Assembly (NCBI RefSeq): GCF_003790525.1
Contig: NZ_CP033635.1
Source of the DNA: Escherichia coli
Lineage (GTDB): Bacteria > Pseudomonadota > Gammaproteobacteria > Enterobacterales > Enterobacteriaceae
Strand: one strand, 5' to 3'
Length of the DNA: 64,000 bases
Shown here: positions 1-44,870 of the stretch, one piece after another
Layout: each line of letters opens with the position of its first letter
Numbering within the stretch: the first letter of the stretch is position 1
Made by a program: the position numbers and the translations under genes
The notes under the pieces: model-generated
The model's database searches: none
Told to the model about the DNA's origin: nothing
Seen by the model: only the letters and a program-made list of their open reading frames with translations

Positions 1-1443
1 CCGAACATCGCTAACCGCAACAAAGGCGGGCGGCGCAAACCGAAAAAGAATTTTTTCAGCGACGAAGCCATCGAAAAGCTGGAGCAGATTTTCTTTGAGC
101 AGTCTTTCGACTATCAGTTGCACTGGTATCGCGCCGGGCTTGAGCACCGCATCCGCGATATCCTGAAATCCCGCCAGATTGGCGCAACGTTTTATTTTTC
201 CCGCGAGGCGCTGCTGCGTGCCCTGAAAACCGGTCATAACCAGATTTTTCTGTCGGCCAGTAAAACGCAGGCGTATGTGTTCCGCGAATACATCATCGCC
301 TTTGCCCGGCTGGTTGACGTTGACCTGACCGGTGACCCGATTGTCCTGGGCAATAACGGCGCAAAACTGATTTTTCTCGGCACCAACTCCAACACCGCGC
401 AGAGCCATAACGGCGACCTGTACGTCGACGAGATTTTCTGGATCCCGAATTTTCAGGTACTGCGTAAGGTGGCATCAGGTATGGCCTCACAGAGTCACCT
501 GCGCTCGACCTATTTCTCCACCCCGTCCACGCTGGCGCACGACGCCTACCCGTTCTGGTCGGGTGAACTGTTTAACCGGGGACGCGCCAGCGCCGCCGAA
601 CGCGTGGAAATCGACGTCAGTCATAACGCCCTTGCCGGTGGGCTTCTCTGTGCGGACGGCCAGTGGCGGCAGATTGTCACCATTGAGGACGCCCTGAAAG
701 GCGGCTGCACGCTGTTCGACATTGAGCAGCTCAAACGCGAAAACAGCGCCGACGATTTTAAAAACCTGTTCATGTGTGAATTTGTTGACGACAAGGCGTC
801 GGTATTCCCGTTCGAGGAGCTGCAACGCTGCATGGTCGACACGCTGGAAGAATGGGAAGACTATGCGCCGTTTGCCGCCAATCCGTTCGGCTCCCGCCCG
901 GTATGGATTGGTTACGACCCGTCACACCGTGGCGACAGCGCCGGATGCGTGGTGCTGGCACCGCCGGTGGTGGCCGGAGGTAAATTCAGAATACTTGAGC
1001 GTCACCAGTGGAAAGGCATGGACTTTGCCACTCAGGCGGAATCCATCCGCAAACTCACCGAAAAATACAACGTCGAATACATCGGAATTGATGCCACCGG
1101 CCTCGGTGTCGGCGTGTTCCAGCTCGTGCGCTCGTTCTATCCCGCCGCGCGCGATATCCGCTACACGCCGGAAATGAAAACCGCAATGGTGCTCAAGGCA
1201 AAAGACGTCATCCGCCGTGGCTGTCTGGAATATGACGTCAGCGCCACCGACATCACCAGCTCGTTCATGGCTATCCGCAAGACCATGACCAGCAGCGGAC
1301 GCAGCGCCACCTATGAGGCCAGCCGTAGCGAGGAAGCCAGCCACGCCGACCTCGCCTGGGCGACCATGCACGCCCTGTTAAATGAGCCACTCACCGCCGG
1401 TATCAGCACCCCGCTGACATCCACCATTCTGGAGTTTTACTGA
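1..1443 (+). CDS. Phage terminase ATPase (large) subunit, P2 gpP-like; 5' end outside window
   Basis: Frame is open from nt 1 (no stop before the listed 118 start); lies immediately upstream of a 344-aa portal with TGATG stop/start overlap at 1441-1445, as in the P2 P-Q operon. Confidence 0.8.
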   Translation, partial: PNIANRNKGGRRKPKKNFFSDEAIEKLEQIFFEQSFDYQLHWYRAGLEHRIRDILKSRQIGATFYFSREALLRALKTGHNQIFLSASKTQAYVFREYIIAFARLVDVDLTGDPIVLGNNGAKLIFLGTNSNTAQSHNGDLYVDEIFWIPNFQVLRKVASGMASQSHLRSTYFSTPSTLAHDAYPFWSGELFNRGRASAAERVEIDVSHNALAGGLLCADGQWRQIVTIEDALKGGCTLFDIEQLKRENSADDFKNLFMCEFVDDKASVFPFEELQRCMVDTLEEWEDYAPFAANPFGSRPVWIGYDPSHRGDSAGCVVLAPPVVAGGKFRILERHQWKGMDFATQAESIRKLTEKYNVEYIGIDATGLGVGVFQLVRSFYPAARDIRYTPEMKTAMVLKAKDVIRRGCLEYDVSATDITSSFMAIRKTMTSSGRSATYEASRSEEASHADLAWATMHALLNEPLTAGISTPLTSTILEFY

Positions 1444-2477
1444 TGAGCAAGAAAAAAGGGAAAACACCGCAACCTGCGGCAAAAAAAATGACCGCCAGCG
1501 CCCCGAAAATGGAGGCATTCACCTTTGGTGAGCCGGTGCCGGTACTCGACCGCCGTGACATTCTGGATTACGTCGAGTGCATCAGTAACGGCAGATGGTA
1601 TGAGCCACCAGTCAGCTTTACCGGTCTGGCAAAAAGCCTGCGTGCTGCCGTGCATCACAGCTCACCGATTTACGTCAAACGTAACATTCTGGCCTCAACG
1701 TTTATCCCACACCCGTGGCTTTCTCAGCAGGATTTCAGCCGCTTTGTGCTGGATTTTCTGGTATTCGGTAATGCGTTTCTGGAAAAGCGTTACAGCACCA
1801 CCGGTAAGGTCATCAGACTGGAAACCTCACCGGCAAAATATACCCGCCGTGGCGTGGAGGAGGATGTTTACTGGTGGGTGCCGTCCTTCAACGAGCCGAC
1901 ACCTTTCGCGCCCGGCTCCGTGTTTCACCTGCTGGAGCCGGATATTAATCAGGAGCTGTACGGTCTGCCGGAATATCTCAGCGCCCTTAACTCTGCCTGG
2001 CTGAATGAGTCGGCCACGCTGTTCCGCCGCAAGTATTACGAAAACGGCGCTCATGCCGGATATATCATGTACGTCACTGATGCCGTGCAGGATCGCAACG
2101 ATATCGAAATGCTTCGCGAAAACATGGTGAAGTCGAAAGGCCGCAACAACTTTAAAAACCTGTTTCTCTATGCCCCGCAGGGGAAAGCTGACGGCATTAA
2201 AATTATCCCGCTCAGTGAAGTGGCAACGAAGGACGATTTTTTTAATATCAAAAAAGCCAGCGCCGCTGACCTGCTGGACGCGCACCGCATCCCCTTTCAG
2301 TTGATGGGCGGCAAGCCGGAGAACGTCGGGTCGCTGGGTGATATTGAGAAAGTAGCAAAGGTCTTTGTCCGCAATGAGCTTATCCCGTTACAGGACAGGA
2401 TCCGCGAGATAAACGGCTGGCTCGGTCAGGAGGTCATCCGATTTAAAAACTACTCACTGGACACTGACAACGGCTGA
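1443..2477 (+). CDS. Phage portal protein, P2 gpQ-like (344 aa)
   Basis: Size identical to P2 Q; overlapping start with terminase gene; followed by terminator and cos. Confidence 0.8.
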   Translation: MSKKKGKTPQPAAKKMTASAPKMEAFTFGEPVPVLDRRDILDYVECISNGRWYEPPVSFTGLAKSLRAAVHHSSPIYVKRNILASTFIPHPWLSQQDFSRFVLDFLVFGNAFLEKRYSTTGKVIRLETSPAKYTRRGVEEDVYWWVPSFNEPTPFAPGSVFHLLEPDINQELYGLPEYLSALNSAWLNESATLFRRKYYENGAHAGYIMYVTDAVQDRNDIEMLRENMVKSKGRNNFKNLFLYAPQGKADGIKIIPLSEVATKDDFFNIKKASAADLLDAHRIPFQLMGGKPENVGSLGDIEKVAKVFVRNELIPLQDRIREINGWLGQEVIRFKNYSLDTDNG

Positions 2478-2482
2478 ACATC

Positions 2483-2505
2483 GCCGCCTGCGGGCGGCTT
2501 TTTTA
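2483..2505 (+). terminator. Rho-independent terminator after portal gene
   Basis: gccgcc-tgcg-ggcggc hairpin followed by a T-run. Confidence 0.5.
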
Positions 2506-2645
2506 CACCCCGTCATCACGCCCTCACACGTTCGCCACTGTACAAAACACCCCGCAGACACACCAACGCCCCGGCAGGCCGACTAAACGCCATCACGACG
2601 CGCTCAGACGCTGAAAAAATAAAATCAGCACCACCGCCAGCGCGC

Positions 2646-2664
2646 AGTGCTTTCCCCGCCTCGC
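2646..2664. other. Phage cos cohesive-end sequence (P2/186-type)
   Basis: gtgctttccccgcctcgcc is the reverse complement of GGCGAGGCGGGGAAAGCAC, which I recall as the 19-nt P2 cohesive end; position (just 3' of Q) is as expected. Confidence 0.55.
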
Positions 2665-2892
2665 CCGCCCGCTTCATGGGTCGGTTTTGATGCAATTCCA
2701 AAAGCCGTCCAAACTCTCTTAGGCTAAATGTCCAACGAGAAAATAGTTCTTTGAATGTGAATGCATTTTAATGCAGAGTTATGCCCAGCATTTTTGTACA
2801 CTTCGATGTATCAAATGCGCTGCAAACGATCAAATATGGATGTTTTATCAAGCATCCCCCAAAAGATATTTACATCATCCCATGAGGTTAAG

Positions 2893-3966
2893 ATGGATAA
2901 CAAAATCGTAGAAATTGAGACAAATAAGCTTGATTTTGACCCTAAAAACCCACGTTTCTTTCGTCTCAATGATGCCAGTAACGCTGCAACAGTCATTGAG
3001 GAAATGTTAGATGACGAAAGTGTCCACGATCTAATGCTATCAATCGGTCAGCAAGGTTACTTTCCTGGAGAACCTTTATTGGCAGTAAAAAGCAATGGAA
3101 ACTACATCGTGGTTGAGGGAAACAGACGCTTAGCTGCTGTAAAGTTGCTCAATGGAGATCTGCTTCCTCCAAAAAGAAAACTTAAAGGTGTGCAAGAAAT
3201 CATTGATGATACTACCAATAAACCTAAGAAGCTTCCCTGCATCATTTATGAAAACCGAGAGGATGTACTGAGATATATCGGTTATCGTCATATAACTGGG
3301 GTCAAAGAATGGGACTCATTATCTAAAGCCAAATACCTTAAAGAGTTATGTGATACTTTTTATTCACATGAGCCTAAAGAGATAGTATTAAAAAATCTGG
3401 CTCGTGAGATTGGGAGTAAACCACATTATGTTGCAACACTTCTCACTGCACTGAACTTATATGAAGTCGCGCATGACCATGAGTTTTTTAATTTACCCAT
3501 GAAGGCTTCTGACGTGGAATTTTCATATATAACCACAGCTTTGGGATATTCAAAAATCACAAACTGGTTAGGTCTACAGGATAAAAAGGATTTTTTAGAC
3601 CCAAATTTAAATGAAGAAAACCTTAAGCGTTTATTCTCTTGGTTTTTTGTGCCTGACCAACAAGGTAGAACCATCATCGGTGAGTCTCGAAGAATAAAAG
3701 ATATTGCAGCAGTGGTTGAGAAACCCGAAGCAATTGAAATTCTCATGAAAAGTTCAAACTTGGATGAAGCATATCTATATACCAGCGGAGAAAGAGAAGC
3801 ATTAGATAAAGCACTAAACGCAGCTAGTGTTAAATTAAGAGTAGTTTGGGATATGCTACTTAAAGCTAAAGAATTAACATTAGAGCATGAAGAGGCTGCA
3901 TCTGAAATTTTTGAGATGTCAAAAAATATTAGAAATCAGATCAGAAGCAAAAGGGAGGATGATTGA
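2893..3966 (+). CDS. ParB/Srx-like N-terminal-domain protein (hotspot cargo gene 1); ORF open from 2761, start 2893 preferred
   Basis: Motifs LDFDPKNPRFF and IVVEGNRRLAAVKL resemble the ParB PNPxQPR and GERRxRA boxes; GAGG 5 nt upstream of ATG 2893; region looks AT-rich. Confidence 0.7.
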   Translation: MDNKIVEIETNKLDFDPKNPRFFRLNDASNAATVIEEMLDDESVHDLMLSIGQQGYFPGEPLLAVKSNGNYIVVEGNRRLAAVKLLNGDLLPPKRKLKGVQEIIDDTTNKPKKLPCIIYENREDVLRYIGYRHITGVKEWDSLSKAKYLKELCDTFYSHEPKEIVLKNLAREIGSKPHYVATLLTALNLYEVAHDHEFFNLPMKASDVEFSYITTALGYSKITNWLGLQDKKDFLDPNLNEENLKRLFSWFFVPDQQGRTIIGESRRIKDIAAVVEKPEAIEILMKSSNLDEAYLYTSGEREALDKALNAASVKLRVVWDMLLKAKELTLEHEEAASEIFEMSKNIRNQIRSKREDD

Positions 3967-4996
3967 GATTATGATTACAAATCTTGATTCAATGCCTTCT
4001 AATGAGCCTTATTTATGGGCTGATTATATTGAGATATTGGCCTTAACTAATATCGACAGGTCATTCAGTCGAGGAGACCTATATAGCACACTGCAAGCTC
4101 AACCCGAAGCAGTACTAGCTGAAACAGATGAAGCAGAAGAAGAGGGCGTTTATGATGTTGATGATGAAAATGATACGCCTGTACGCAAGAGAACAAAACG
4201 AAGTGTTAGTCGAGCATATACTGACAGAAAGTGGAGCTATGCGATAGGCTTCATACGACAACGCATTGATTTATTTGGGGATAGTTACCCTTTTACTTTA
4301 TCAGAAGACAACGATACTGTAGAGTTACGTGATATATCAGAAAAGCCACTGGAACATTTAGAAAGACTATATTTAGCTTTACTAATCTGTGCTAACATAA
4401 AATATGTCAACATAATGAGCAGAAGAGAGATAACGCGCAGTTTTGAACTAATTAGTTTACCTATTTTTGAAAGCCTAATGCCTAGCGGTAGCATAATAAA
4501 AGCATGCTGGGCTTCTGGTGGTCAAGCGGCCCCTTACACTGGAACTCTATATAATAAATTTAAGAGTATTGCTTCCGATATCCGTTGCACAGCGAACTTC
4601 AAAGAACGAGATTTCAGTCGAGGAAATAGTGGTGACGGAGGCCTTGACATAATTGCCTGGCATCCAATGGGAGATCAACGAGATGCCATCCCTATTTCTT
4701 TTGTTCAGTGTGGCTGTTCTCAAGAAGAGTGGGAAGCGAAGCAGCTTGAGGCCTCACCTGCGATGCTCTACAGTAAATTCCCCGTAGCTCACCGATGGGC
4801 AACTTATTATTTCTTACCTCAAGATCTACGATGGATAGATGGTGAGTGGGCGCATAAAAATAAGTTAGGCGATGCTATTTTTGTTGATCGCCTAAGATTA
4901 ATCAATTTAACCAGAGCATCTGATAATATTGATCACAGTCAAAATATTAGCTATCTAGATATCATCCTTGATCCTTCCAGCGCGATCGCTGCTTAA
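3959..4996 (+). CDS. Hypothetical protein, possible PD-(D/E)xK-like nuclease core in C-terminal half (hotspot cargo gene 2)
   Basis: Start ATG 3959 overlaps gene 1 stop (ATGATTGA), alternative ATG 3971; GGAGG at 3954-3958; acidic then basic tract ETDEAEEEGVYDVDDENDTPVRKRTKR; GGLDIIAW ... EEWEAK fits a D...ExK spacing (weak). Confidence 0.6.
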   Translation: MIEIMITNLDSMPSNEPYLWADYIEILALTNIDRSFSRGDLYSTLQAQPEAVLAETDEAEEEGVYDVDDENDTPVRKRTKRSVSRAYTDRKWSYAIGFIRQRIDLFGDSYPFTLSEDNDTVELRDISEKPLEHLERLYLALLICANIKYVNIMSRREITRSFELISLPIFESLMPSGSIIKACWASGGQAAPYTGTLYNKFKSIASDIRCTANFKERDFSRGNSGDGGLDIIAWHPMGDQRDAIPISFVQCGCSQEEWEAKQLEASPAMLYSKFPVAHRWATYYFLPQDLRWIDGEWAHKNKLGDAIFVDRLRLINLTRASDNIDHSQNISYLDIILDPSSAIAA

Positions 4997-5931
4997 TCCC
5001 ATAAATCTGGAAGGTTTCTAGCAACCGCCTCAAACAATGGAGGCGGTACTGCATTACCTACCACAGTATATTTCATATTAATAGAAGCCCGTTCAGTTTC
5101 TGGGAAAATTAAATCCCCAAAACCTTGTAAAATAGCAGCCTCTCGATAGCTAAACCTACGAGCTGGTGCATCCGAAGTAAATTGCCACTTATCAGGTCCC
5201 AATTTTTCTAATGTTGGACTTATTGGATGTAGAGGCATATGTCTAGGATTTGCAACAATTGTTTTAGATATCTGATCCCAATCTTGCCTACGGTTTCGCG
5301 ATAGATAATACCAATGAAAATCGGCGTCATAAAACTCGCCAACAGGCCAAACAGGCATATGCCCAATAGCATCACGAATTGTGGAATATGGTGTCAAACC
5401 ATCACCATGTGTTGGTTTTGGAAATTTGTATGTAATACCGTAGTCCTTTCGTATTCCTACGATAAAGATTCGCTTCCTATCTTGGGATACCCCATAATGG
5501 GACGCATTCAGAATTTGCGAGCTTACTGTATAACCTGCTTCTTCGAAAACTTTGAATTGATCCTTTAATAAATGCTCAAAGTTACGCCTTACCATACCAG
5601 AGACATTCTCTACAATGAATGCTTTTGGCTTAATTTTACTCAAAGCACGGGCAAACTCTAAATATAGTGTATTAATCTTTCTATCTGCCTTCCTTGCCCC
5701 ACCTTGACTAAATCCTTGGCAAGGATAGCATCCGATGAGCAACTCAGCAGAAGGGAACGACTGGAGCCCTGAGATATCGCCCAAAATGTAGTCAGTTTCA
5801 GGATGGTTTTCTAAGTAAACGTCCCTTGCGTAAGGCAAAATATCATTTGCCATAAGCACATTGAAACCTGCGTTCAAAACTCCCGCATCAGAACCACCAC
5901 ATCCAGAAAAAAGTGAAACTACAGTTGGCAT
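4993..5931 (-). CDS. DNA (cytosine-5)-methyltransferase, short HaeIII/HhaI-size type (312 aa)
   Basis: Motif I FSGCGG, motif IV PCQGFS, motif VI ENV, motif VIII QDRKRIFIVG; AGGAGG-type RBS upstream of start; stop overlaps stop of gene 2 within TTAA at 4993-4996. Confidence 0.9.
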   Translation of the reverse strand: MPTVVSLFSGCGGSDAGVLNAGFNVLMANDILPYARDVYLENHPETDYILGDISGLQSFPSAELLIGCYPCQGFSQGGARKADRKINTLYLEFARALSKIKPKAFIVENVSGMVRRNFEHLLKDQFKVFEEAGYTVSSQILNASHYGVSQDRKRIFIVGIRKDYGITYKFPKPTHGDGLTPYSTIRDAIGHMPVWPVGEFYDADFHWYYLSRNRRQDWDQISKTIVANPRHMPLHPISPTLEKLGPDKWQFTSDAPARRFSYREAAILQGFGDLIFPETERASINMKYTVVGNAVPPPLFEAVARNLPDLWD

Positions 5932-6173
5932 TGACCCCTCCTAAAAACCGACCGCGTATTATAGCGAAACACCCCGTTGGGAAAAGCTAGATTTTGCCAA
6001 GTCTTGATATTCTCACGTTTTAGTAGTTGTGGCCATCTTTAACGAGAAAAAGATAAAATTGACTTCTCATTAATTTTCAATAGGTTTAATTGTAAGCTCA
6101 AACTAACGCCTCGCGACACTCGTTATTCAACCCCGCCAGCCCTGAAAACAAGTTTCACGACTGGCGGCGTTCT

Positions 6174-6392
6174 CTATCGTCTGCGTTGTGGTGGCGCAAC
6201 TCTGGACTGACCGATATGGTTAAACCGCCCGTAATTATCCCGGACTATTTCGGCACACCCGACCAGCTCATCGGGCGTCAGATTTTCGTTGACCATAATC
6301 CGCTGTAAACGCTGAACAATAGCCATCAGCTTGATATTTTTAGTTTTATGGTGCGGTATCTCGCCTGGTATTCTGTGCATTATCCAAGCCAC
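6174..6392 (-). CDS. Small hypothetical protein at cargo/replication-module boundary
   Basis: 72-aa ORF only; overlaps 3' end of ASCH gene; no recognisable motif. Confidence 0.3.
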   Translation of the reverse strand: MAWIMHRIPGEIPHHKTKNIKLMAIVQRLQRIMVNENLTPDELVGCAEIVRDNYGRFNHIGQSRVAPPQRRR

Positions 6393-6832
6393 CCGTTTTG
6401 CTGTGCACGCTCCATCTGTTCATCTGAATAGTTCCATGCTCCATCCGTGGCAACCATTGCCCCGCCAGACATCCCCGTCTCTGGTTCATACATAACAGCA
6501 AGGCCGAGCTGATGCATAATTTCATGATTAATTCTGAATACCAGGCCACGCTCACTAAGTTCTTTCCAGTTCACAATCTCATATGCGCCTGTATTAAGCA
6601 GCTCAATACTTAGCAAGACATAATCTTCCAGCCAGTCTGACAGGTCAGTAACATCTGTTATCCGGGCTTCAACATTTCGCCCCGTATACACACCCTGCAC
6701 CCATTCATACAAAATCAACGTGTCCCCGCGCTCATAATTACGGTCATTTTTCCGGAACTCTGCACGTTTCTTTCCTTCCAGCACAAGGTCGAAATATTTT
6801 GCGTGCAGCTTTACCTCGTGAATTTTTGCCAT
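6380..6832 (-). CDS. ASCH (PUA-like) domain protein at the P2 orf91 position
   Basis: N-terminal MAKIHEVKLHAKYFDLVLEGKKRAEFRKNDRNYERGDTLILYEW resembles ASCH; start ATG 6832 shares a base with the gene A stop (TAATG). Confidence 0.65.
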   Translation of the reverse strand: MAKIHEVKLHAKYFDLVLEGKKRAEFRKNDRNYERGDTLILYEWVQGVYTGRNVEARITDVTDLSDWLEDYVLLSIELLNTGAYEIVNWKELSERGLVFRINHEIMHQLGLAVMYEPETGMSGGAMVATDGAWNYSDEQMERAQQNGWLG

Positions 6833-9159
6833 TATGTCCACTCCATTACTGTTGAGAATCCCGGCCACTCATCAGCGACCGGATACGTGAATTTTTTCCC
6901 GTCATAATTTACGGTCGCGCCACGCGCCAGCGCCTCAAGCTCCCATCGCTGCGGCCTGATACCGTTCTGAGCAAGGTCAACGCGGATACGGGTAATTTGC
7001 GTTCGTTCCGACCGGGTCAGTCTGGCCGATGGCGCTATTTCATGTGGTTTTAACGGGCTTCCGTTTCTCTGCTGACGATTTGGTGTTCTCAGTTCGTGTT
7101 TTAATGCACCTCTGAGCGCCCTCACGACCTCTGGCTCATTCCATTCGATAACACCGTCATCAACCAGATTAAGCACGGCTGCGGCATGTTCATAAGGTGT
7201 GGGAGCCGGTAACGAAGTATCACTGCCGGTGAGCTTTCCACAGTTATTGACAGGACTCCGAGGCGCGGCGATGCCGCTTTTTAAAGTCAAAGGCTCAACG
7301 ACCGGAACTTTCGGCACAATGCGCCAGTCCGTCGTTCTGGTGATATGAATATGACGCGCGCCGAGATGCGGCGCGTAAATACCGACCACTCTCTCGACTT
7401 CTTCCTCGTACTCGTTAACGTCACTCGACGGGCTACGGGCAACCCTGACAGTCTGACAATCGCGCGGGACATTTGCCCCACCCTGCGCGCTGATATACAA
7501 CGCAAAATCACCACTGTCTGCGGCAGCGCGAGCAGCCTCGACGCGTTCGTCAAACTCATCAGCAATACTGACGCCGCGAGGTAATTTGCGTAGTTCACGG
7601 TAAGCCCCCATTGTCGGTAGGCCAACCGTTTTAAATTGCGGAATGCGCCACGTTGACGCCCATGCGGTAACAGCCGCGGCAGTGTCTTTCAGCGGCCTGC
7701 CGGTATCGTTATCGAGCTGACCATCCAGTGCATAGCCGTCGATGTTTTTTGAAATGTATTTCGCGATATACCCCGCAGCACCGCCCCGATTAAGGTGTTT
7801 TGCCTGAAAACGGTTTCGCGCGGCTCCTCTTTCGTCGCCATCCTCTTTGAGCGCATAGCGACGCATGATTTCGATAATCTGGTTACGCTGGCGCGAATTA
7901 CAAAAAAGCATCATATGCCAGTGCGGCGTTCCGTCGTGGTGTGGCTCGACGACACGCAAACCGTAGACCTGTAAATCATTATCCTTGAATGCCGTGCGCA
8001 TCAGGCTCCAGATACGGCAGAGATAACGCTGCGCATCCTTTGGATTAAATGCCTCATCGTTCCAGCCGTGATTAAGCTGCACGGTTTTACTTTCGCCTTT
8101 TCCTACCTGACGTGTCGGGTGATACTTTGACGGCGCGGTCAGCGTGATAAACATCCCCACATCACCCTCTGCAGCGGCGTAACGCTCAATACCGGCAATG
8201 GTGTTCATCAGCTCCATCCGGCGAATTTCAGGATTAGAAATACTGCCCATCACCTTACTGATAAGGTCGATGCGCTCGCCGGTTTCCCTGTTTTCAAGGT
8301 CACACGATTTAAGAAATTCCAGATTTGCCTGGCGGCGCGCACGCACATCACGAATGGCATGTTTACTGGCATAAGGTGAACGGTCTTTATTGACCTCCCC
8401 GACAGCAATCAGTAACGCCTCATGCCAGCGCATACGCTGGCCTTTAAGCTGTCTAATCCACCACTCATCGTTAAACAGGCGGGCAATGGCAGAATATGCC
8501 TGCCTCGTGGTCATCTGCCCTTTACGGTATTTTCTCCAGTACAGCGGGGAAATATTGAAAGCACGTGCAGCGCCAGCAACATGACCATACAGGTGAGCCT
8601 GCGCCTCATCCGTAAACAGCGATTCTTTTTCGCCATGGGCATCCACCCAGGCATCGCAGAGTTCCTCATACATCATGAAAAGCTGCGATGAGATACGGGC
8701 GGCAAACTTTTTCAGCTCCTTGTCATTCATTCCCGGCAGGCGCGCATAGTGGTCACGCTCTGCCAGAAACAGCAACGACGCGTCGGTGTTCATTTCATGG
8801 CGCTGATTCACACGCTCAATGCGCGGCCATAAACGACGCTGAAAAGTGGATGTGAGGAAATAAAACCCGTGCACCGGGCTTTTATTGCGCCGGATGTAGT
8901 CATAGCGTGAAGTAAACAGCGAGCGCAAAAAGTAAGGCAGGCGGTTAATCGTGGATAAAACACCTTGCACCTGACGCATCTCATCACGTGTAAGGGGTCT
9001 TTCGCGCCCGACGGCCTCGCGTGGCGCGTTCCATGCATAAGCACCGGTAAACATCTTACCGGTGCCTGCGGCAAATGCTGACGGAGGGACAAAACGCCCG
9101 GAGGCTTTAACGGCCATATGAGCCAAAAGCCTCTGAACAACGCCTGCTGAGTTGCTCAA
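6832..9159 (-). CDS. Rolling-circle replication initiation endonuclease, P2 gpA-like (HUH superfamily)
   Basis: HUH motif PHWHMMLF and YxxxY motif GYIAKYISK; 775 aa against 761 aa for P2 A; position in early operon. Confidence 0.85.
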   Translation of the reverse strand: MSNSAGVVQRLLAHMAVKASGRFVPPSAFAAGTGKMFTGAYAWNAPREAVGRERPLTRDEMRQVQGVLSTINRLPYFLRSLFTSRYDYIRRNKSPVHGFYFLTSTFQRRLWPRIERVNQRHEMNTDASLLFLAERDHYARLPGMNDKELKKFAARISSQLFMMYEELCDAWVDAHGEKESLFTDEAQAHLYGHVAGAARAFNISPLYWRKYRKGQMTTRQAYSAIARLFNDEWWIRQLKGQRMRWHEALLIAVGEVNKDRSPYASKHAIRDVRARRQANLEFLKSCDLENRETGERIDLISKVMGSISNPEIRRMELMNTIAGIERYAAAEGDVGMFITLTAPSKYHPTRQVGKGESKTVQLNHGWNDEAFNPKDAQRYLCRIWSLMRTAFKDNDLQVYGLRVVEPHHDGTPHWHMMLFCNSRQRNQIIEIMRRYALKEDGDERGAARNRFQAKHLNRGGAAGYIAKYISKNIDGYALDGQLDNDTGRPLKDTAAAVTAWASTWRIPQFKTVGLPTMGAYRELRKLPRGVSIADEFDERVEAARAAADSGDFALYISAQGGANVPRDCQTVRVARSPSSDVNEYEEEVERVVGIYAPHLGARHIHITRTTDWRIVPKVPVVEPLTLKSGIAAPRSPVNNCGKLTGSDTSLPAPTPYEHAAAVLNLVDDGVIEWNEPEVVRALRGALKHELRTPNRQQRNGSPLKPHEIAPSARLTRSERTQITRIRVDLAQNGIRPQRWELEALARGATVNYDGKKFTYPVADEWPGFSTVMEWT

Positions 9160-11581: not shown

Positions 11582-11650
11582 CACTCTATAAACATTACAT
11601 TTTCACCATTTGTTACCAAGATGGTGAATACAGCGTCAGAGGGCTTTCTT

Positions 11651-12631
11651 ATGTCAATTAAGAAGCTCGATGATGGACGCTATGAAGTGGACATTAGACC
11701 TCGCGGTCGCGACGGAAAACGCATCCGCAGGAAATTTGAAAGAAAAGCTGAGGCTGTAGCATTTGAGCGATACACAATCGCCTACGCCAGCCAGAAAGAA
11801 TGGGCAGGTCAGCGAGCAGATCGCAGAACTTTGAGTGAGTTGCTGAACATCTGGTGGAAATATCACGGGCAAAACCACGAGCATGGAACAAAAGAGTTTA
11901 ATCATCTGCTCAAAACCATCAGCGGCATAGGTGATATACCAGTGAGCCGGATGAGCAAAAGAGCTTTGATGGATTATCGTTCCATGCGACTACGTGATGG
12001 TATCAGTGCCGCAACGATAAACCGTGACATGTACCGATTATCCGGCATGTTCACAAAATTAATTCAATTGGATGAATTTTCCGGGCAACACCCAATTCAC
12101 GGACTGCCGCCACTGGCGGAGGCCAACCCTGAAATGACGTTCCTGGAAAAAGCAGAAATCGAAAAACTGTTAAATGTTTTGGATGGTGATGACTTACTTG
12201 TCGCACTTTTATGTCTGAGCACTGGAGGAAGATGGACGGAAGTTGCCACGCTAAAACCAGCACAGATTACAAATTGCAGGGTTACCTTCCTGAAAACCAA
12301 AAACGGTAAAAAGCGAACCGTGCCGATTTCTGAGGAACTGGAGAAAAAAGTTAAAGAGGAGGCCAGCGCTAAATTATTCAAAGTTGATTATGAGAAGTTT
12401 TGCGGGATTTTACGCAGAGTGAAGCCAGATATACCACCCAATCAGGCAACCCACATCCTGCGGCATACATTCGCAAGCCATTTCATGATGAATGGGGGCA
12501 ATATAATCGCACTGCAACAGATTCTGGGACATGCGAGCATTCAGCAGACGATGGCCTATGCGCACCTTGCGCCTGACTACCTGCAAAATGCCGTCGCGCT
12601 GAATCCTCTAAAAGGCGGAGTGACGTTATAA
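11651..12631 (+). CDS. Tyrosine integrase, P2 Int-like (ORF open from 11621)
   Basis: C-terminal HILRHTFASHFMMNGGNIIALQQILGHASIQQTMAYAHL tyrosine-recombinase signature; N-terminus MSIKKLDDGRYEVDIRP resembles P2 Int. Confidence 0.9.
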   Translation: MSIKKLDDGRYEVDIRPRGRDGKRIRRKFERKAEAVAFERYTIAYASQKEWAGQRADRRTLSELLNIWWKYHGQNHEHGTKEFNHLLKTISGIGDIPVSRMSKRALMDYRSMRLRDGISAATINRDMYRLSGMFTKLIQLDEFSGQHPIHGLPPLAEANPEMTFLEKAEIEKLLNVLDGDDLLVALLCLSTGGRWTEVATLKPAQITNCRVTFLKTKNGKKRTVPISEELEKKVKEEASAKLFKVDYEKFCGILRRVKPDIPPNQATHILRHTFASHFMMNGGNIIALQQILGHASIQQTMAYAHLAPDYLQNAVALNPLKGGVTL

Positions 12632-15540: not shown

Positions 15541-15640
15541 GCATTGTAGGCAGGATAAGGCGTTTACGCCGCATCCGGCATTTGAGCAGGATGCCTGATG
15601 CGACGCTGATAGCGTCTTATCAGGCCTACACTCCGGGGGT
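15541..15640. repeat. REP/BIME palindromic elements
   Basis: gcctgatgcgacgctg ... cgtcttatcaggcctac type REP units between cpxA and yiiM. Confidence 0.6.
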
Positions 15641-39060: not shown

Positions 39061-42000
39061 ATGCAGGTCAGCAGAAGGCAGTTCTTTAAGATCTGCGCTG
39101 GCGGTATGGCAGGCACCACGGCAGCGGCACTGGGTTTTGCACCCAGCGTAGCACTCGCGGAAACCCGGCAGTATAAACTGCTGCGCACCCGCGAAACCCG
39201 TAATACCTGCACCTATTGTTCCGTAGGCTGTGGGCTGTTGATGTACAGCCTCGGTGACGGAGCAAAAAACGCCAAAGCATCTATCTTCCATATCGAAGGT
39301 GACCCGGATCACCCGGTCAACCGCGGAGCACTTTGTCCGAAAGGCGCTGGCCTGGTGGATTTCATCCACTCCGAAAGCCGCCTGAAGTTTCCGGAATACC
39401 GTGCGCCAGGTTCTGATAAATGGCAACAAATCAGTTGGGAAGAGGCGTTTGATCGCATCGCCAAACTGATGAAAGAAGACCGCGATGCGAACTACATTGC
39501 GCAAAACGCCGAAGGCGTGACTGTTAACCGCTGGCTCTCCACCGGGATGCTGTGTGCTTCCGCGTCGAGCAACGAAACCGGCTATTTAACACAAAAATTC
39601 TCCCGCGCGCTGGGTATGCTCGCGGTCGACAACCAGGCGCGTGTCTGACACGGACCAACGGTAGCAAGTCTTGCTCCAACATTTGGTCGCGGTGCGATGA
39701 CCAACCACTGGGTCGACATCAAGAATGCCAACCTCGTCGTGGTGATGGGCGGTAACGCCGCTGAAGCTCACCCGGTCGGGTTCCGCTGGGCGATGGAAGC
39801 CAAAATTCACAACGGCGCGAAGCTGATTGTGATCGATCCTCGCTTTACACGTACGGCGGCGGTGGCTGACTACTATGCCCCTATTCGTTCCGGGACTGAC
39901 ATTGCTTTCCTGTCAGGCGTATTGCTGTACCTGCTGAACAATGAAAAATTCAACCGCGAATACACCGAAGCCTATACCAACGCCAGCCTGATCGTGCGTG
40001 AGGATTACGGCTTTGAAGATGGCCTGTTCACCGGCTACGACGCGGAAAAACGCAAGTACGATAAATCCAGCTGGACCTACGAGCTGGACGAAAACGGCTT
40101 CGCCAAACGCGATACCACGCTGCAACATCCGCGCTGCGTGTGGAACTTGCTGAAACAGCACGTTTCCCGTTATACGCCAGATGTGGTTGAAAACATCTGT
40201 GGTACGCCGAAAGACGCGTTCCTGAAAGTCTGCGAATACATCGCAGAGACCAGTGCTCACGATAAAACTGCCTCGTTCCTTTACGCGCTCGGCTGGACGC
40301 AACACTCCATTGGTGCGCAAAACATTCGTACGATGGCGATGATCCAGCTGCTGCTCGGCAACATGGGGATGGCAGGCGGCGGCGTTAACGCCCTGCGCGG
40401 TCACTCCAATATTCAGGGGCTGACCGACCTGGGGCTGCTGTCGCAGAGTCTGCCAGGTTACATGACGTTGCCAAGCGAGAAGCAGACCGATCTGCAAACT
40501 TACCTTACCGCCAACACGCCGAAACCACTGCTGGAAGGCCAGGTTAACTACTGGGGCAATTACCCGAAATTCTTCGTCTCCATGATGAAGGCCTTCTTTG
40601 GTGATAAAGCGACGGCGGAAAATAACTGGGGCTTTGACTGGTTGCCGAAGTGGGATAAAGGCTACGACGTCCTGCAATACTTCGAGATGATGAAAGAGGG
40701 CAAGGTCAATGGCTATATCTGCCAGGGCTTTAACCCTGTTGCCTCATTCCCGAACAAAAACAAAGTGATCGGCTGTCTGTCGAAACTGAAGTTCCTCGTG
40801 ACCATCGACCCGCTGAACACTGAAACCTCTAACTTCTGGCAGAACCACGGTGAACTGAACGAAGTTGACTCGTCGAAGATCCAGACCGAAGTGTTCCGTC
40901 TGCCATCGACCTGCTTCGCGGAAGAGAACGGTTCAATCGTCAACTCTGGCCGCTGGTTGCAGTGGCACTGGAAAGGTGCGGACGCCCCGGGGATTGCGCT
41001 GACTGACGGCGAGATCCTCTCCGGTATCTTCCTGCGCTTGCGCAAGATGTATGCCGAACAGGGTGGCGCGAACCCGGACCAGGTGCTGAACATGACCTGG
41101 AACTACGCCATTCCGCATGAGCCATCTTCAGAAGAAGTGGCGATGGAGAGTAACGGTAAGGCGCTGGCCGATATTACCGATCCGGCAACCGGTGCGGTTA
41201 TCGTCAAGAAAGGCCAACAACTTAGCTCGTTCGCCCAACTGCGCGATGACGGTACAACCTCCTGTGGCTGCTGGATTTTCGCCGGTAGCTGGACGCCGGA
41301 AGGCAACCAGATGGCGCGTCGTGATAACGCCGATCCGTCTGGCCTCGGTAACACGCTGGGCTGGGCATGGGCATGGCCGCTTAACCGCCGCATTCTGTAT
41401 AACCGCGCCTCCGCAGATCCGCAGGGTAACCCATGGGATCCGAAGCGTCAGTTGCTGAAATGGGACGGCACTAAGTGGACCGGCTGGGATATTCCGGATT
41501 ACAGCGCAGCGCCTCCGGGCAGTGGCGTCGGGCCGTTTATCATGCAGCAGGAAGGCATGGGGCGTCTGTTTGCCCTCGATAAGATGGCGGAAGGTCCGTT
41601 CCCGGAACACTACGAGCCGTTTGAAACGCCGCTGGGAACTAACCCGCTGCATCCAAACGTTATCTCGAACCCGGCTGCGCGAATCTTTAAAGACGACGCC
41701 GAAGCATTGGGTAAAGCCGATAAGTTCCCGTATGTCGGAACCACCTATCGTCTGACCGAGCACTTCCACTACTGGACCAAACACGCGCTGTTGAACGCGA
41801 TTTTGCAACCAGAGCAGTTTGTGGAAATCGGGGAGTCGCTGGCGAATAAACTTGGCATTGCCCAGGGCGATACTGTGAAAGTCTCCTCCAACCGTGGCTA
41901 TATCAAAGCCAAAGCGGTAGTGACCAAACGTATTCGCACGCTGAAAGCAAACGGCAAAGATATCGATACCATCGGTATTCCGATTCACTGGGGCTATGAA

Positions 42001-44759: not shown

Positions 44760-44870
44760 ATGATTGCCTGATGCGCTGCGCTTATCAGGCCTACCAATAA
44801 ACTTCAATATATTGAATTTGCATGACTTTGTAGGCCGGATAAGGCGTTCACGCCGCATCCAGCATGAACA
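44760..44870. repeat. BIME: two inverted REP units
   Basis: gcctgatgcgctgcgcttatcaggcctac and gtaggccggataaggcgttcacgccgcatcc. Confidence 0.6.

Follow-up and report, generated by a model that had tools for sequence, protein, structure and literature searches.

ParB is best known for its role in chromosome segregation and, more recently, as a cytidine triphosphate (CTP)-dependent clamp. ParB-like domains are also found in proteins of phage defence, among them PD-lambda-5, DndB, DndI, SspE and GmrSD. PD-lambda-5 is a validated, prophage-borne defence system composed of a ParB/HEPN protein and a methyltransferase; an mrr deletion in the host was required for its cloning, and it has been described as a compacted 'RM+Abi' system (Vassallo et al. 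2022, PMC9519451). In DndI and SspE, a DUF262 ParB-superfamily NTPase is fused to an HNH nuclease and works together with phosphorothioation (PMC11662687). P2-like phages carry, between portal gene Q and replication gene A, a hotspot occupied by old and tin, and four of the new systems of Vassallo et al. lie there (PMC9519451). Here we describe three genes situated in this hotspot in a stretch of 64,000 nucleotides (nt) of Escherichia coli DNA (contig NZ_CP033635.1), hereafter called the window: gene 1, which encodes a ParB-like protein, gene 2, which encodes a protein with a restriction-endonuclease fold, and mth, which encodes a C5 DNA cytosine methyltransferase. In phage Wphi the same genes are named gp98, gp96 and mth (DNA cytosine methylase). 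From sequence comparisons we conclude, with moderate confidence, that together they make up a mobile defence cassette of restriction-modification-like character, which is cargo of the Q–A hotspot and in which genes 1 and 2 would form the restriction half; that the three genes are one functional unit is very probable.

The nearest named system is PD-lambda-5. In both cases a ParB-N-domain protein is paired with a DNA methyltransferase, and residues 1–151 of gene 1 match 24 PD-Lambda-5_A models of PADLOC with a best E of 2.5e-24, a further match, to the candidate PDC-M38A, covering residues 41–327. The hhalign comparison of a PD-Lambda-5_A-like protein with the gene 1 family gave a probability of 94.7% over the N-terminal domain, with NPR, GNRR, LPC and (Y)(R/K)H in common. 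The two systems differ in their C-terminal parts, as PD-Lambda-5_A ends in a HEPN domain, a predicted RNase, whereas gene 1 carries a helix-turn-helix (HTH) domain and a helical C-terminus; unlike in PD-Lambda-5_A, the effector is a separate protein with a PD-(D/E)xK fold. In addition, mth belongs to the C5 enzymes, and the 25 PADLOC matches listed for it do not include PD-Lambda-5_B. Membership of PD-lambda-5 was rejected, since the homology is confined to residues 1–151 of gene 1 and HEPN is missing. The idea that PD-Lambda-5_A is a fusion of genes 1 and 2 was also discarded: hhalign against the gene 2 family gave a probability of 0.2%, and the C-terminus is HEPN.

The nearest mechanistic analogues are DndI and SspE, which likewise combine a ParB-superfamily nucleotide-binding module with a nuclease and are partnered with DNA modification. 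Moreover, relatives of genes 1 and 2 adjoin dndBCDE or dndH, as dndI does. In DndI and SspE, however, one polypeptide holds both the DGQQR motif and the HNH nuclease, whereas here the EGNRR motif, the ParB-type HTH and the PD-(D/E)xK fold are divided between two proteins, and the copy in the window is paired with a 5-methylcytosine (m5C) methyltransferase rather than with phosphorothioation. Structure models place the ParB/KorB clamps as the nearest structural relatives of gene 1 and the SdaI-type enzymes as those of gene 2. Gene 1 has the domain order of ParB and KorB (ParB/Srx, HTH, C-terminal helical part) with invariant NPR and GNRR, but lacks a ParA, parS or KorA context, resembles ParB only marginally in sequence and, by manual alignment, seems to carry (R/K)-H in box III. 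The gene 2 model combines a winged helix with PD-(D/E)xK as do the two-domain type II enzymes of the SdaI type; it differs from them in lacking sequence similarity to any solved structure and in its putative catalytic lysine, which appears displaced. The arrangement as such, a convergent C5 methyltransferase with Vsr close by in relatives, is customary in m5C restriction-modification systems, yet the obligatory and highly conserved ParB-like partner has no counterpart in known type II systems. No description of the gene 1–gene 2–methyltransferase trio was found in the literature searched, a set of incomplete coverage that excluded REBASE, and the paper of Rousset et al. (PMC9122126) contains no mention of ParB or methyltransferase.

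Conservation of the three-gene unit

A scan of one genome per species, whose hits were then analysed with profiles of both gene families, yielded 48 loci in Gamma- and Betaproteobacteria, Campylobacterota, Acidobacteria, Armatimonadetes, Chloroflexi, Negativicutes, Planctomycetes and Bacteroidetes. Gene 1 directly precedes gene 2 in all related loci whose upstream DNA is preserved. The linkage of a methyltransferase gene to the nuclease gene that characterizes restriction-modification systems is found in the window, in about 34 of the 48 genome loci, where a C5 methyltransferase lies near the pair, and in 44 of 44 viral contigs, where the order gene 1–gene 2–methyltransferase is kept, most often between homologues of the P2 portal and gpA. 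In about 29 of the 48 genome loci the methyltransferase is 60–84% identical to mth and adjoins gene 2, mostly tail to tail; more distant C5 methyltransferases are nearby in 5–6 further loci. The hosts of the methyltransferase-linked loci include Gamma- and Betaproteobacteria, Acidobacteria, Armatimonadetes, Chloroflexi and Negativicutes. A Methylomonas chromosome and Enterobacter P2-like prophages carry the ParB-like gene, gene 2 and a convergent DNA methylase, while in Ramlibacter the pair is directly followed by vsr and the methylase lies ~3.6 kb away. Six loci (L002, L003, L010, L028, L030 and L044) have an adjacent gene for Vsr, the repair nuclease associated with m5C systems. Overall, a modification gene is found within 6 kb in 45 of the 48 genome loci, the other three being truncated contigs, and no pair devoid of a modification gene was seen among the surveyed loci with enough flanking DNA.

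The gene junctions are conserved as well. The start of gene 2 falls within the stop of gene 1 at ATGATTGA, as the original prediction had noticed in proposing coupled expression, and this junction is kept in related loci: the overlap of 8 nt recurs in six of them, and most others range from −8 to +5 nt. Genes 1 and 2 are thus translationally coupled. At the other end, gene 2 and the methyltransferase have stop codons that overlap by 4 nt, an arrangement shared by no fewer than 15 related loci of different genera. The pairwise identities of genes 1 and 2 correlate over the loci (r = 0.94), as expected if the two genes were inherited together, with a mean of 37% for gene 1 and 31% for gene 2. 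Three loci (L027, L029 and L037) have an intact methyltransferase next to a gene 2 that is split or truncated, and in E. coli JXZ9A32M (L056, 2567–4795) an IS5 element is inserted in gene 2 while the cassette is otherwise 100% identical and its methyltransferase intact. Decay of gene 2 beside an intact methyltransferase is a pattern typical of restriction-modification systems and gives an indirect hint in that direction. The prophage around the JXZ9A32M cassette is degraded, with truncated portal and gpA genes. The original prediction had tentatively read genes 1 and 2 as a ParB-like sensor with a nuclease effector; coupling and folds bear out the pair, but the third gene had been overlooked, and because the convergent C5 methyltransferase belongs to the unit, the sensor and effector become parts of a restriction-modification-like cassette.

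Thirteen genome loci lack a related C5 methyltransferase; apart from truncated contigs, their neighbours are other DNA-modification genes. In eight of these, which are divergent, the pair stands beside DndB, DndC, DndD or DndA, or right after DndH: DndH is directly upstream in L041; DndA/SspA and DndC are neighbours in L046; L047 and L053 have DndB, DndC and DndD in tail-to-tail orientation to the pair; and DndC and DndD are neighbours in L043, L049, L048 and L050. A different type II methyltransferase lies downstream of the pair in L055. DndFGH and DndI are the restriction modules described beside dnd genes (PMC10853773, PMC11662687), and the gene 1–gene 2 pair, judged by its position, fills the place that they hold. 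The window itself contains no dnd genes, and the architecture of the pair is unlike the named Dnd/Ssp modules DndFGH, DndI, SspE and PbeABCD. The occurrence of the pair beside either m5C methyltransferases or phosphorothioation genes suggests that the restriction module is able to change partners among DNA marks.

Two arrangements in this sister clade hold additional genes. In two Campylobacterota loci (L048, 3212–4930, and L050, 3141–4895) a DUF262-type protein of ~570 amino acids (aa), which matches the PADLOC models Orf5 and HEC-06 and is SspE-like, is encoded by a gene that directly precedes the gene 1 homologue and overlaps with it, so that a three-gene operon with two different ParB-superfamily proteins may be present. 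In two Bacteroidales-type contigs (L051, 2692–6867, and L052) a PD-lambda-5-like pair, made up of a 422-aa ParB-N protein and a PD-Lambda-5_B methyltransferase, lies directly upstream of genes 1 and 2, all four genes running in one direction.

In E. coli, 103 of 5426 complete genomes carry the cassette at ≥99% identity. A further 36 genomes, for example of O145, carry in the same hotspot a variant in which the methyltransferase is 98% identical at the aa level while gene 1 is 32% and gene 2 25% identical, and all 139 copies are chromosomal. This variant looks like a swap of the restriction pair beside a fixed methyltransferase. Across classes, too, the adjoining methyltransferases hold 60–84% identity while gene 2 drops to ~30%. 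As the gene 2 family is unannotated, many 'hypothetical' prophage genes would gain a function if the cassette is what we propose, in E. coli alone those of the 103 cassettes and the 36 variants. E. coli W, the host of Wphi, lacks hsdRMS, mcrBC and mrr (PMC3032704). In 1967, restriction of phage lambda by E. coli W was reported, and the cassette may be a candidate for its genetic basis.

Table 1. Features of the cassette, of its prophage surroundings and of a variant locus. Positions refer to the window, except for the last row, which is numbered on its own locus.
Feature	Position	Strand	Description
Gene 1 (Wphi gp98)	2893–3966	+	357 aa; ParB/Srx N-terminal domain, HTH DNA-binding domain, C-terminal helical hairpin
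Gene 2 (Wphi gp96)	3959–4996	+	345 aa from 3959 or 341 aa from 3971; stop TAA at 4994–4996
Gene 2 domains			predicted: N-terminal winged-helix-like region and C-terminal PD-(D/E)xK restriction-endonuclease fold
mth	4993–5931	−	C5 DNA cytosine methyltransferase, HaeIII-like, 312 aa; convergent on gene 2
Gene 1/gene 2 junction, ATGATTGA	3959–3966	+	gene 2 ATG overlaps gene 1 TGA (3964–3966); 8-nt overlap
Gene 2/mth junction, TTAA	4993–4996		overlapping stop codons of the convergent genes
Acidic-then-basic low-complexity insertion in gene 2	4121–4213	+	variable loop between helices; model confidence (predicted local distance difference test, pLDDT) falls to 66
Low-GC cargo island	2667–6380		P2 defence hotspot 1; from the cos end beside Q to the P2 orf91 homologue upstream of A
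Terminase gene	118–1443		prophage flank; open reading frame (ORF) list
Portal gene Q	1443–2477		prophage flank; ORF list
Replication gene A	6832–9159	−	prophage flank
Integrase gene	11621–12631		prophage
Variant cassette of E. coli O145 RM8988-C1 (L057)	1902–4938		counterpart of window 2893–5931

Features of the three proteins

Gene 1 lies within an ORF spanning 2761–3966, which contains MDNKIVEIETNKLDFDPKNPRFF from the ATG at 2893 as well as YIVVEGNRRLAAVKLL. This ATG is preceded by GAGG. All 46 homologues examined begin at the equivalent position, which points to 2893 as the start of gene 1, and because of this agreement the deposited 401-aa version of Wphi gp98, starting at 2761, is probably too long. 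The gene 1 family comprises 1624 clusters at 90% identity and the gene 2 family at least 1518 clusters at 50% identity (E ≤ 1e-3); since both belong to large conserved families, neither is a chance ORF.

The two ParB N-terminal boxes from which the original prediction started, LDFDPKNPRFF and VVEGNRRLAAVKL, are present in gene 1. Its structure model matches KorB, Spo0J (ParB) and sulfiredoxin and thus has the ParB/Srx fold. At the level of sequence the Pfam ParB_N match is marginal, with an E of 0.067, and matches to PDB sequences have E values of 0.008–0.15. Conserved residues were taken from 45 loci that cover the whole gene 1/gene 2 family. In gene 1, the residues D16, N19-P20-R21, E60, E75-G76-N77-R78-R79, (R/K)132-H133, G136, W140 and K145-A146 are kept, and they define the invariant motifs DxxNPR, EGNRR and (Y/F)(R/K)H(I/V)(T/N)G...W...KA. 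The equivalents of ParB box I (xPR) and box II (GxxRxxA) are intact: N19-P20-R21 and G76-N77-R78-R79-L-A-A are invariant, and HMMER pairs GNRR with GERR of Spo0J and ParB. The position of box III (ENxxR) appears to be occupied by Y131-R132-H133-I-T-G with an invariant (R/K)-H, in a register set by hand on the secondary structure of Spo0J and not by an alignment tool.

Most homologues of gene 2 align from its second ATG, at 3971, which lies 4 nt past the gene 1 stop, while PGAP calls the start equivalent to 3959 in E. coli JXZ9A32M and UniProt entry A0A602C1X9 (345 aa) has the matching length. On these alignments and annotations the true start is taken to be 3959 or 3971, either of which is tightly coupled to gene 1. 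The deposited Wphi gp96 starts at 3887 (369 aa); homologue alignments favour 3959 or 3971.

Gene 2 matches no Pfam, NCBIfam or PADLOC family, also when 45 aligned members are scanned singly, and sequence and profile searches of the PDB gave no meaningful match, so that it has no sequence relative among solved structures. Its structure model (pLDDT 89) matches the PD-(D/E)xK restriction endonucleases SdaI, NgoMIV and MspJI and shows their alpha-beta-beta-beta-alpha-beta core. Weaker matches to winged-helix proteins were also obtained and probably stem from the N-terminal third of the model. A Foldseek search of the AlphaFold database returned members of the gene 2 family, a few of which are automatically named 'Restriction endonuclease'. 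The segments GDGGLDIIAW and SQEEWEAK, in which the original prediction had seen a possible PD-(D/E)xK active site, are both present in the translation; the fold agrees with this proposal, but the E-A-K core does not hold, since in EEWEAK only W254 and K257 are conserved and the glutamates vary. Numbered from 3971, the residues kept in gene 2 are D18, E21, R98, Y134, F158-E159, D222, D226, W230, D235, Q246, W254, K257 and D306-R307-x-R309, among which E159, D222, D226, Q246 and K257 take the place of the proposed core; the codon of D226 is GAC at 4646–4648. On the model, E159 is carried by the first core helix and D226 opens the second strand, both being where a PD-(D/E)xK site would have them. 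The third strand closes with Q246, so that its catalytic position holds Q and not D/E, and the sole invariant lysine, K257, follows 11 residues on in a loop of low confidence. Displaced lysines occur in the Cfr10I/NgoMIV group. It is plausible from the model that E159, D226, Q246 and K257 form a variant PD-(D/E)xK site.

The acidic-then-basic tract ascribed to gene 2 is real and covers residues 51–81; in the alignment of 45 members it is a clade-specific insertion missing from most homologues. A zinc site formed by C247, C249, H231 and H274 was considered and rejected, as these residues, the QCGCS cysteines included, are not conserved in the divergent clades.

The third protein, mth, passes the cut-off of the dcm family TIGR00675 (E 1.8e-54), and its residues 4–307 align with M.HaeIII (PDB 1dct; E 1.6e-48), the target-recognition region included. 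This end-to-end similarity suggests a GGCC-like site. GGCC is scarcer than the maximal-order Markov expectation both in the window (178 observed vs 308 expected) and in its first 12.6 kb (33 vs 50), counts for which there is no E. coli background and from which no conclusion is drawn; CCGG and GCGC are near expectation in the window. The top PADLOC matches of mth are DruM and MTase_II. Assignment to Druantia type II was rejected, because DruE, DruF and DruG are missing and no ORF for a large helicase exists in 2477–6832; the DruM match is best read as a general family resemblance of C5 methyltransferases.

Proposed mechanism and competing explanations

In the restriction-modification-like reading, mth would place 5-methylcytosine on host and prophage DNA, probably at a GGCC-like site. 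Gene 1 would bind DNA through its HTH domain, find or scan DNA and report its modification state, with its nucleotide pocket (NPR, GNRR) acting as a switch, and gene 2, with its winged helix and PD-(D/E)xK fold, would cut incoming DNA that lacks the modification. The analysis shows the folds, the invariant residues, the coupling and the synteny, from which we infer that the two proteins associate, that their action depends on a nucleoside triphosphate (NTP), that gene 2 cleaves DNA, that mth methylates the site suggested above and that the cassette protects against phages. More tentatively, and with clear reservations, we propose that gene 1 is a nucleotide-gated clamp of the ParB/KorB type that has been recruited as the target finder of a restriction enzyme, and that it loads on DNA or slides along it and hands unmodified DNA to gene 2, the pair being a portable module to be combined with m5C methylation, phosphorothioation or other modifications. 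If true, restriction systems that depend on NTP would gain a new class, distinct from types I and III with their helicase motors and from the GTPase McrBC. More generally, restriction-modification would gain an architecture in which a ParB-family protein is the obligatory partner of the nuclease, and a small three-gene E. coli system would make testable how the ParB-like domains of PD-lambda-5, DndB, DndI, SspE and GmrSD couple nucleotide binding to the discrimination of self from non-self.

Three observations weigh against the restriction-modification-like reading. The E-N of ParB box III is needed for CTP hydrolysis, and its seeming replacement by (R/K)-H in gene 1 means that CTPase activity is not to be assumed. 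A promoter scan upstream of gene 1 returned nothing above the shuffled expectation. Finally, the combination of a 98%-identical methyltransferase with pairs that are 25–32% identical appears awkward for a strictly co-evolved sequence-specific enzyme: the divergent pairs would either share one recognition site or sense the modification mark itself, as DndI and SspE do. Because a near-fixed methyltransferase tolerates such divergent pairs, sensing of the modification is kept as the main rival mechanism. According to it, the ParB-like NTPase would read the host mark and either switch the nuclease on, as in SspE, or drive its release from self DNA, as in DndI, and cutting would show little sequence specificity. 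SspE and DndI work in this way with phosphorothioation (PMC11662687), the pair occurs with m5C, phosphorothioation and other methyltransferases, and in the two Campylobacterota loci the gene just before gene 1 encodes a DUF262 protein that matches the Orf5, HEC-06 and SspE models. Still, we consider this rather unlikely: gene 1 is not a DUF262 protein, it carries EGNRR and not DGQQR, no SspE, DndB or GmrSD is among the 25 PADLOC matches listed for it, and the fold of gene 2 is PD-(D/E)xK and not HNH. The present data do not separate activation, release and blocking models.

The resemblance of gene 2 to SdaI, with a winged-helix-like N-terminal region of its own, would also suit a conventional type II enzyme that acts alone, leaving gene 1 as a regulator in the manner of C proteins or DndB, a KorB-like repressor. 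The HTH domain of gene 1 resembles those of KorB and ParB, and DndB, a member of the ParB superfamily, is reported to be a transcriptional regulator of the dnd genes (PMC10853773). We nevertheless give this explanation a small chance, for gene 1 exceeds gene 2 in size and conservation, its enzyme-like pocket is invariant across several phyla, and it is coupled to gene 2 in almost every locus and present wherever upstream DNA exists. Known C proteins are, besides, small HTH proteins. Solitary phage methyltransferases are common, which raises the further case that mth is an anti-restriction or epigenetic gene of the phage and that genes 1 and 2 serve defence or abortive infection independently of it, merely sharing the hotspot; P2 hotspots do stack unrelated systems (PMC9519451). 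The conserved convergent stop overlap, which recurs in unrelated chromosomal, non-phage contexts, the constant presence of a modification gene when flanking DNA is available and the linkage of Vsr make such independence very improbable. Lastly, although the N-terminal ParB domain and the HTH of gene 1 would suit it, a role as partition or segregation ParB for the phage genome is effectively refuted. As the original prediction had already remarked, there is no partition context: the ORF list contains no ParA-like ORF between Q and A, no parS-like inverted repeats occur within 2480–6400, and the TIGR00180 score of gene 1 is 30.5, under the cut-off of 58.45. P2-like phages integrate, and an integrase gene is present; every one of the E. 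coli copies is chromosomal; and the partner is always a protein with a nuclease fold.

Prophage setting and neighbouring features

The three-gene cassette is carried by a P2-like prophage that extends from the start of the window to ~12.6 kb. Positions 2666–6200 are 99.9–100% identical to phage Wphi and to the 'Peduovirus P2' record, and the linear Wphi genome ends at a point equivalent to ~2666. Genes 1 and 2 sit between portal gene Q and replication gene A, which is the old/tin defence hotspot of P2. The GC content is 35–44% over 3000–6000 and 51–60% in the flanks, and this low value fits acquired cargo, as expected. A terminator-like hairpin downstream of Q, at 2483–2498, is the sole terminator returned by the promoter and terminator scan.

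Between mth and A, a minus-strand ORF at 6380–6868 is annotated in Wphi and E. coli records as a DUF3850 protein, the homologue of P2 orf91, and a small ORF (Wphi gp92) separates it from mth. In the host part of the window, three Rfam families score above their gathering thresholds: naRNA4 (CssrE) at 15549–15626 on the plus strand, ES036 (CssrF) at 44787–44829 on the minus strand and SECIS_3 at 39643–39701 on the plus strand. The last match, a selenocysteine insertion element, might suit a formate dehydrogenase gene near cpxP–fieF, the reported insertion site of Wphi1 in E. coli W.

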